A program made the translations under genes and the position numbers. The notes under the pieces are model-generated. The model did not search any database and had not been told where the DNA came from. It worked only from the letters and a program-made list of their open reading frames with translations. Below are positions 3,959-27,135 of a stretch of 64,000 nucleotides of DNA, one piece after another (positions within the stretch are counted from its first letter, which is position 1; each line of letters starts with the position of its first letter). This DNA is from Octopus vulgaris (taxonomy: Eukaryota). The stretch lies in contig OX597815.1 of the NCBI GenBank assembly GCA_951406725.2, forward strand, positions 72,106,001 to 72,170,000. The letters are read 5' to 3'.

Positions 3959-4020
3959 AGATTAAACTCTGAGTTTCAGATGCCGAAGTGAAATCCACAA
4001 CACCATCTCTTCGGTTATCT
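3959..4020 (-). ncRNA. Type I hammerhead ribozyme motif (U4C variant), mirror copy
   Basis: Reverse complement reads AGATAA CCGAAGA GATG...CATC T GAAAC TCAGA GTT TAATCT. Confidence 0.55.
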
Positions 4021-4055
4021 GGCTATTTGAAAACGTTATCCGTTTTCAAATAGCC

Positions 4056-4124
4056 AGATAACCGAAGAGATGGTGTTGTGGATTTCTTCCATTCACTTCG
4101 GCATTGAAACTCAGAGTTTTATCT
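4056..4124 (+). ncRNA. Type I hammerhead ribozyme motif (U4C variant)
   Basis: Stem I AGATAA/TTATCT, core CCGAAGA, stem II GATG/CATT, GAAA, stem III ACTC-A-GAGT, cleavage triplet GUU. Confidence 0.65.
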
Positions 4125-26193: not shown

Positions 26194-26239
<46 letters not shown>

Positions 26240-26316
26240 TATATAAAAGCAACACAACTAAATTGAAGGATTACATAATAATTTTTTGTGAAGTTCATGT
26301 TAACTTTCAGAAGGAA

Positions 26317-26409
26317 ATACTTGACATTGACTTCGAAGTTACAACTTGCTCGGCTTCGTCAAGCAGTCTGATAAAGGAGAGCAGGCCGAAACTTCAAAGT
26401 CACTGTCAA
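26317..26409. ncRNA. Back-to-back pair of type I hammerhead motifs
   Basis: Plus strand 26364-26405: CAGT CTGATAA AGG..CC GAAAC TTCAAA GTC ACTG. Minus strand: TTGACGA AGC..GTT GTAAC TTCGAA GTC AATG (more degenerate). Confidence 0.65.
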
Positions 26410-26459
26410 TGTTTTTTCCCTTCAAAAAGTGTATGTATGTATGTATATACACATACACA

Positions 26460-26510
<51 letters not shown>

Positions 26511-26720
26511 ACACAGTTGCACACGCACACATATATACAGGAATATATATACGTGTGTATGTTCATAAGTTCTTCGCATTTTGGTATTTACTATATATAT
26601 ATATATATATAGGATATATATGTATATACACACACACACGCATATAGACATACATACATACAGACACACACACACGCATGTGTGTGTGTCTACATACATA
26701 TACTTTTACAAGGACAAGAC

Positions 26721-26812
26721 TGATAGTGACTTTGAAGTTTCGGCCTGCTCACCTACATCAGGCTGTCTGATGAAGGTGCGCGATTTGAATCCTTGAAGTC
26801 ACTATCAAGTAT
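26721..26812. ncRNA. Second back-to-back hammerhead pair, inverted copy of 26317-26409
   Basis: Minus strand: CTGATGT AGG TGAGCAGG CC GAAAC TTCAAA GTC ACTA. Plus strand: CTGATGA AGG..TTT GAAT CCTTGAA GTC ACTA. Confidence 0.65.
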
Positions 26813-26906
26813 CATCATCATCATCATCATCACTGTCATCATCAGCATTATCATCATTTAACATCTGTTTTTCATGCTGGCATGGGTTGGCCAGTATTTG
26901 TATACC

Positions 26907-27135
26907 AGGCGGCGAGCTGGTAGAAACGTTAGCATGCCGGGCGAAATTCGTAGCCGTATTTCGTCTGTCGTTACGTTCCGAGTTCAAATTCCGCCGAGGT
27001 CGACTTTGCCTTTCATCCTTTCGGGGTCGATAAATTAAGTACCAGTTACGCACTGGGGTCGATGTAGTCGACTTAATCCCTTTGTCCGTCCTTGTTTGTC
27101 CCCTCTGTGTTTAGCCCCTTCTGGGTAGTAAAGAA
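26907..27135 (+). mobile_element. Meta-domain-like SINE, near full-length
   Basis: Highly similar to 52740-52982 including the 3' tail. Confidence 0.9.

Follow-up and report, generated by a model that had tools for sequence, protein, structure and literature searches.

Two decayed head-to-head pairs of hammerhead-like motifs at an octopus microsatellite probably stem from a Penelope-dependent repeat family

We analysed a 64,000-nucleotide stretch of the Octopus vulgaris genome (assembly GCA_951406725.2, contig OX597815.1, positions 72,106,001 to 72,170,000 of the forward strand; hereafter the window), in which two inverted units on either side of a microsatellite carry four motifs resembling hammerhead ribozymes. 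An initial annotation of this DNA had taken the arrangement for a cassette whose transcripts, from either strand, could excise and possibly circularise a microsatellite-containing RNA. The reading that we hold with good, though incomplete, confidence is that the four motifs belong to copies of the 3'-end module of a large non-coding repeat, set in two head-to-head pairs that have since decayed, that this repeat likely spread into the microsatellite by retrotransposition of the Penelope-like element (PLE) type, and that none of the four motifs is expected to cleave. The locus is probably the unremarkable scar of an old insertion by a hammerhead-bearing repeat family that itself probably depends on PLEs for its mobility.

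Two inverted units carry four damaged motifs

An inverted-repeat scan located the left unit at 26317-26413 and the right unit at 26716-26812 of the window, each 97 nt long, with a mutual complementarity of 78%. The same type of scan showed the right unit to be quasi-palindromic in itself (41-nt arms, 73%), and the corresponding quasi-palindrome of the left unit is visible in the alignment and fold of its own arms. Outward from the centre of each unit, each strand presents CUGAnGA, GAAAC, UUCRAA and GUC in this order, and same-sense GUC triplets are 399 nt apart on both strands. Most of the local description in the initial annotation is borne out by the sequence and the alignment, including four motifs in two quasi-palindromic units, the lesions CTGATAA, CTGATGT, GTAAC and GAAT, the microsatellite between inverted units and a distance of about 400 nt between same-sense motifs. 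The ~93-bp unit given there is also real, at 97 nt, but the repeat to which it belongs is longer, with the tail of the left arm reaching to ~26233.

On the left, motif L+ (26362..26407, plus strand) was placed from the sequence, the alignment and a genome pattern match (C2:72132368-72132403); it has G8->A in its box (CUGAUAA, 26368-26374), GAAAC at 26388-26392 and GUC at 26399-26401. Its mirror image L- (26323..26369, minus strand), placed from the sequence and family alignment, has a C3->U change in the box at 26363->26356, A13->U in GUAAC at 26342->26338, GUC at 26331->26329, and weakened helices I and II. Sequence and alignment likewise define the motifs on the right: R- (26722..26767, minus strand) has A9->U in its box (CUGAUGU, 26761->26755), GAAAC at 26741->26737, GUC at 26730->26728 and has lost 2 of 5 helix I pairs, and R+ (26761..26806, plus strand) has an intact CUGAUGA box at 26767-26773, A15.1->U in GAAU at 26787-26790, a collapsed helix II and GUC at 26798-26800. 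Would-be cleavage sites on the plus strand lie at 26401/26402 for L+ and at 26800/26801 for R+. With at least one lesion of the conserved hammerhead core (C3 U4 G5 A6 N7 G8 A9, G12 A13 A14, N-U-H) in every one of the four copies, cleavage by them would not be expected.

When folded, the unit on either strand was predicted to form a hairpin of -37 to -43 kcal/mol in which each catalytic box is paired with its mirror copy, and isolated arms gave folds of -7 to -11 kcal/mol that are not hammerheads. The local copies are ~20-30% diverged. The inner arms of the two units are 84% identical to each other (rank 33 of 1540 pairs), each having an equal or better match at another locus, and for the outer arms the identity is 69%, at rank 778 of 1540. 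By these identities, the two window units are no closer to each other than to other members of the family.

The unit is a mirrored junction of a dispersed repeat

Pattern searches were run over the 2.8-Gb genome, each paired with a reversed-pattern control. The pattern CTGATGA-N11-16-GAAACTTYRAAGTCAC gave 113 matches, the same pattern with CYRAYRA in place of the CTGATGA box gave 436, and a 22-nt core (GAAAC...GUC...helix I stretch) gave 641, each against 0 for the reversed pattern; the hammerhead-like motif is more than a chance match. A search with the left unit returned 56 matches at 71-81% identity, many of them on both strands of one place, and the double-headed layout, for which the initial annotation had proposed looking elsewhere in the genome, recurs at a minimum of 26 other loci. 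Similarity at the aligned loci continues past the unit into a tail of ~150 nt. Judged from these alignments, the unit is the head-to-head junction of two copies of a 3' module, consisting of the hammerhead-like motif and the ~150-nt tail, of a large dispersed repeat.

The two halves of a unit are seldom equally long. At the 26 double-headed loci and in the two window units, mostly one arm alone has a detectable distal tail, and the tail-less arm at the double-headed loci ends 10-30 nt past GUC, often at a microsatellite. Many of the loci found through the motif pattern are single-headed, with one motif, a common unique sequence upstream and the same tail downstream. Walking upstream led to a non-coding element of ~0.9-1 kb, in which none of the 40 scored matches starts before query position 250 (>=250), marking a defined 5' end. 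No stop-to-stop open frame of at least 150 amino acids was found in 12 family loci. The copies form a graded 5'-truncation series of up to ~1 kb, junction details vary between them, and at locus L081 the 5' end of a full copy is directly joined by an inverted copy that is itself 5'-truncated. The window's layout of two units flanking a microsatellite was seen at 0 of the 26 other loci, where the unit is solitary within +-1.5 kb.

Several individual copies were also recorded. The single-headed copies L036-L038, L060, L144, L145 and L051 often end a few bases upstream of the CUGA box, where mirrored copies join. A comparatively well preserved double-headed unit lies at G000:C1:107465244-107465323; both of its arms match the full pattern, and its CCGACGA boxes are 6 nt apart on opposite strands. 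An identical motif pair 3,242 bp apart (L141 2528-2817 and 5770-6059; G000:C7:54767500-54776500) was considered as a pseudo-long terminal repeat (pseudo-LTR) and rejected as a local duplication, being a 290-nt direct repeat, 98% identical, that includes flanking sequence from outside the family; no stop-free frame of at least 120 amino acids lies between its two copies.

Motif anatomy and subfamilies

The family motif runs from the 5' strand of helix I (ACAGU, or GACAGU if palindromic) through the CUGAYGA box, one unpaired base, helix II (GGC(U)...(G)GCC), GAAAC, UUCGAA and GUC to the 3' strand of helix I (ACUGUC), helix I having 5-6 bp. Of 429 cells, 77.4% pair when the motif is read in the hammerhead register, as against 13-36% in slid registers. 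Stem III is the best preserved part, with 98% of cells paired: positions 15.1-16.1 and 15.3-16.3 pair in 33 of 34 arms and the C-G pair 15.2-16.2 in all 34. Its loop is the palindrome TTCGAA or one of the CpG-decay forms TTCAAA and TTTGAA. At 10.1-11.1, the 34 arms have G-U in 19 cases, G-C in 7, A-U in 2 and other combinations in 6, giving 26 of 34 with G-C or G-U; the G-U pair is the decayed form, since the C lies in a CpG.

Subfamilies were tallied by hand in the first 100 of the 436 CYRAYRA matches. An unpaired eighth base between A9 and 10.1 is present in every one of these 100, most often as T (69), otherwise as A (23), C (7) or G (1). The box of the 69 extra-T copies starts with CCG in 29, CTG in 21, CCA in 16 and CTA in 3, and an unbiased sample based on upstream sequence had the same mix of CCG, CTG and CCA. 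This spectrum suggests that the extra-T subfamily, which is the most abundant, had a CCGACGA ancestor in which C replaced core U4; CTG and CCA would then be its two CpG-decay products. Changes at U4 strongly lower hammerhead activity. The 23 copies with extra A, the subfamily of the arms in the window, start with CTG in 17, CCG in 2, CCA in 3 and CTA in 1, a distribution that points to the canonical CUGACGA as their ancestor. For this subtype, then, the CTGATGA consensus that had been reconstructed from the four local motifs is a fair one.

Mirrored copies join at a stereotyped point and lie near microsatellites

An inverted partner scoring above every control window was found for 15 of 46 sampled copies, and one above the 95th percentile of the controls for 21 of 46. 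For 13 of the 15, the distance between the end of the partner and the CUGA box downstream of it is 0-10 nt. Within the window's own subtype, inspection by eye, with weak and deleted partners counted, gave an inverted partner in 15 of 22 copies, 2 ambiguous cases and 5 single copies. Several head-to-head pairs are also present in the genome match list for the upstream element. The copies are associated with microsatellites as well: of 56 loci, 28 have a dinucleotide run of at least 16 nt no further than 450 nt from the motif, and for control windows taken ~1 kb away the figure is 23 of 112 (odds ratio 3.9, p = 1.6e-4).

The family resembles Penelope-like elements in motif type and insertion pattern

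Min-hammerheads of PLEs are marked by an unpaired base after A9, G10.1-C11.1, a palindromic 15.2-16.2 pair and a palindromic loop 3 (Cervera & de la Pena 2014, PMC4209133), and the family motif has all four of these traits. The same work describes min-hammerheads as having low activity in vitro and probably acting as dimers, with copies that are mostly solitary and truncated, and reports dual min-hammerheads on opposite strands 100-700 bp apart (PMC4209133); a review (PMC6765202) agrees on stem III and on dimers. According to Craig et al. 2021 (PMC8557442), insertions of PLEs are heavily 5'-truncated and biased to (TA)n/(CA)n, often with an inverted 5'-truncated copy next to their 5' end, and have a hammerhead close to the 3' end. 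This pattern is found again in the octopus family, with its truncation series, inverted copy at the 5' end and microsatellite bias. PLE-type GIY-YIG domains are abundant in the genome, with 148 of 150 scored candidates matching, out of 6136, and many of them lie in 781-aa open frames.

Compared in detail with the PLE min-hammerheads of PMC4209133 and PMC6765202, the family motif shares type I topology, a helix I of 5-6 bp, the extra base after A9 and G10.1-C11.1, and by analogy its very short stem III and palindromic TTCGAA loop suggest that it may act as a dimer. Further points in common are a copy number in the hundreds to thousands, with copies that are heterogeneous and mostly solitary, dual motifs on opposite strands, and a weak or absent score with standard models. 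Unlike the published min-hammerheads, the family has a stem III of 2-3 bp with a 4-6-nt loop and a helix II of 3-4 bp, where several families in PMC4209133 have 6-8 bp; its opposite-strand motifs stand back to back, 0-10 nt apart, instead of at a distance of 100-700 bp; its largest subfamily seemingly derives from CCGA and not from CUGA; and no reverse transcriptase/endonuclease element with the family motif was found among 30 GIY-YIG loci. With the endonuclease-positive PLE insertions of PMC8557442 the family shares strong 5' truncation, an inverted adjacent copy forming inverted repeats, the bias to (TA)n/(CA)n and a hammerhead near the 3' end, whereas the head-to-tail partial tandems (pseudo-LTRs) described there are hardly seen in the family, with one possible same-strand pair. 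Many family arms also differ from those PLEs in having no distal tail and ending in microsatellite, and the octopus elements are non-coding and only ~0.2-1 kb long.

Animal retrozymes have been argued to be non-autonomous PLE derivatives (Li, Clavereau & Pollet 2026, preprint 10.64898/2026.07.22.740005), and the non-LTR retrozymes form head-to-tail tandem arrays with monomers of 170-400 nt and are expressed as circular RNAs (Cervera & de la Pena 2020, PMC7229834; 10.64898/2026.07.22.740005). The family resembles animal non-LTR retrozymes, proposed derivatives of PLE termini, in being non-autonomous and non-coding and in having a type I hammerhead that perhaps needs dimerisation; it differs from them in lacking tandem arrays, with no second unit within +-1.5 kb at the 26 loci, and it is known here from DNA. 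Viroid-like circular RNAs of the Avsunviroidae type (e.g. PMC7461866) likewise have a hammerhead motif that can be read on both strands, but these are RNA replicons with plus and minus ribozymes of different sequence, whereas the octopus motifs are decayed mirror copies in a dispersed chromosomal repeat. The motifs occur on both strands because of an inverted DNA duplication, a palindrome, and not as two polarity-specific ribozymes. The hammerhead design recognised in the initial annotation thus holds at the level of the family, as one of the retrozyme/Penelope kind, and the likeness that it drew to ambisense viroid-like RNAs is not supported for these mirror copies in dispersed chromosomal DNA.

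An apparently young PLE family was seen at L097, L102 and many other places, with intact 781-aa frames bearing a GIY-YIG domain at the C-terminus; its 3' region has ~70-nt tandem repeats and no CUGA...GAAA by a loose pattern.

A proposed route to mirrored insertions

A mechanism that could produce these copies starts from element RNA being reverse-transcribed in a target-primed manner, by the reverse transcriptase and GIY-YIG enzyme of a PLE, at a nick in (CA)n/(TA)n. Synthesis would often stop at the 5' edge of the motif, which is the site of a small native inverted repeat, CATCA..TGATG, and a template switch or fold-back of the cDNA at this repeat could then generate the mirror half at insertion. 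Arms that end in microsatellite might be explained by priming inside the element, where the AU-rich tail begins. In the source elements, the motif would process transcripts as a dimer. The two units in the window could have entered the one microsatellite in two separate events, or both could go back to a single complex insertion of old date.

If this reading is right, the pattern of four hammerheads on both strands can arise without any function, as PLE-type elements insert truncated and mirrored into microsatellites. For annotation, the gain is a large repeat family with a hammerhead module that Rfam models overlook. The CCGA ancestry of the dominant subfamily and the fixed mirror junction bear on what hammerheads do for PLEs, and neither is established.

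Observations that count against PLE-type spread of a hammerhead module

A number of results weigh against the reading given above. The first concern the autonomous partner. None of 30 GIY-YIG loci, taken from the 6136 candidates, carries the motif or the tail as its own 3' end according to BLAST, a regular expression and an nhmmer tail profile; the sole match of the tail profile among them (L110) is on the other strand at a distance of 1.3 kb, and its composition is highly biased. A tblastn comparison of a 597-aa PLE open frame with 11 element copies also revealed no similarity to the ~1-kb element. With no autonomous partner found among these 30 loci, assignment to PLEs rests on motif type and on resemblance of the insertion pattern.

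A second group concerns the motif as a ribozyme. In 20 family loci, as in the window, no Rfam hammerhead family (RF00163/RF00008 and relatives) attained its gathering score, and none appeared at E<=10 in 26200-26900 or on the intact-core copy L039:1420-1640; gathering and permissive thresholds both yielded just hairpin/miRNA-like and microsatellite noise. The Rfam search does work on this genome, as RF00163 scores above threshold at six other places, where it finds canonical hammerheads unrelated to the family. Covariation does not exceed that of shuffled alignments, 310 of 500 and 216 of 500 shuffles reaching the observed values. The fold would accordingly be a property of the inherited consensus, which neutral decay of the copies would lead one to expect. 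The apparent CCGACGA ancestor further implies that the most abundant subfamily spread without a canonical core, and that many CTGATGA boxes arose by CpG decay. Contigs from four RNA runs compared with 26237-26427 contained only pieces of other family copies, at 90-99% and over 26364-26417 plus the tail, and are uninformative on expression or RNA ends.

The insertion model meets two further difficulties. In many arms a microsatellite truncates the 3' side 10-45 nt past GUC, which plain target-primed reverse transcription does not predict. Generation of the mirror half at insertion would be expected to leave the arms of one unit as closest kin, and the identity of an arm to its own partner (0.641) is not significantly above that to arms of other loci (0.609, p = 0.11). 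At the level of single units, 6 of 28 rank their own partner arm first or second, and L004, L008, L011 and L026 are among those with private variants in both arms; own-partner ranking and shared private variants give a hint that the halves were made together, although the overall test is not significant.

The six canonical type I hammerheads recovered by RF00163 (L085, at G000:C5:6546758-6546804, and L086-L090) have a best score of 45.5 bits, and three of them are 108 nt long with a common large insertion.

Alternative explanations

One unlikely alternative is that the element is SINE-like (from short interspersed nuclear element) or otherwise non-autonomous and carries a hammerhead, and that it was moved by a long interspersed nuclear element (LINE), as proposed for the schistosome Sm-alpha type, with its inverted halves arising by twin or hairpin priming. 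The failure to find a PLE partner among the 30 GIY-YIG loci would fit this, elements that depend on LINEs typically show 5' truncation and microsatellite-like 3' ends as well, and SINE-like hammerhead elements are known (PMC6765202). The stereotyped head-to-head pairs at the 5' end, together with the full copy at L081 and its inverted truncated copy, instead form the pattern of PLEs (PMC8557442), the extra base and palindromic stem III are of PLE type (PMC4209133), and GIY-YIG PLEs are very abundant in this genome.

We give a similarly low chance to a version in which the module has not been retained as a ribozyme: the native inverted repeat at its 5' edge would serve as the fold-back and priming point for the mirror half, and the ~200-nt motif and tail would form a mini-element in its own right. 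Two observations are compatible with such a role, namely that the most successful subfamily has C at core position 4 (CCGA) and that the junction is stereotyped, 0-10 nt from the box. If it were true, the resulting hairpins of ~45 bp could feed small-RNA pathways.

More doubtful still is a palindromic DNA transposon, either a miniature inverted-repeat transposable element (MITE) or a foldback element, with an accidental resemblance to hammerheads. The unit and its tails do make a long palindrome, and the silence of the Rfam hammerhead models, the lack of covariation and the non-canonical CCGA box of the major subfamily also speak for it. Such a transposon does not agree with the many single-headed members, which have unique upstream sequence and a graded 5'-truncation to ~1 kb, with the restriction of the distal tail mostly to one arm, with the differences in junction detail between copies, or with the coincidence of four independent PLE min-hammerhead traits (PMC4209133).

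The functional ambisense cassette of the initial annotation, in which a transcript of either strand would use its two same-sense hammerheads to excise and perhaps circularise a microsatellite RNA, is very improbable: the spacing of GUC sites on both strands, the hammerhead-like motif of the family and the recurrence of double-headed units speak for it, and against it stand core lesions in all four motifs, a two-unit layout confined to the window in the comparison with 26 loci, units that are not sister copies, a strong hairpin that buries both boxes on either strand and single arms that do not fold as hammerheads, a 399-nt "excisable" segment that is plain microsatellite, and the origin of the both-strand motifs in a DNA palindrome.

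Tails, microsatellite and neighbouring repeats in the window

Under the favoured reading, as PLE-type insertions into a microsatellite, the parts of the locus outside the motifs can be assigned as follows. Of the left unit's two arms, the left is long and the right, which runs into the microsatellite, is short; both arms of the right unit are short. The tail, or 3' part, of the long left arm occupies 26237..26322 on the minus strand, as placed by alignment to locus L018 and by the tail profile; local alignment to the full arm of L018 extends over 26361 down to 26233, and the nhmmer profile of the family tail matches 26240-26366 on the minus strand. This tail probably continues, as judged by eye, past a (CT)19 array to ~26165. 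The array itself is perfect, covers 26198-26235 inside the tail, and apparently represents a microsatellite that grew or was inserted within the repeat.

Arm L+ keeps a short tail remnant at 26408..26427 (plus strand), which contains the family tail motif CCTTGTAAAAGT in the alignment and ends in microsatellite, the nhmmer envelope reaching to 26436. A similar remnant of arm R- lies at 26701..26721 (minus strand), identified by alignment and by an nhmmer match to 26699-26764 on the minus strand. Between the two remnants, the compound microsatellite at 26428..26700, to which no strand is assigned, comprises (TGTA)4, (AC)33, (TA)18 and (AC)24; it is likely the insertion target and lies outside the repeat family.

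The right side of the right unit adjoins an (ATC)n array. This array belongs to a SINE-like repeat on the minus strand at 26811-27050, next to the right unit, whose (ATG)n tail reads as (ATC)15.7 on the plus strand. The start of this SINE-like repeat ('catcat..tttaa..gtttt.catgct.gcatgggttgg') is also present beside family copies at L034 and L068.

Elsewhere in the window, a putative mir-9/mir-79 precursor hairpin lies at 3999-4077. Both strands score above the Rfam gathering threshold of 58.6 (62.1 and 61.8 bits), and the hairpin is a near-perfect palindrome.

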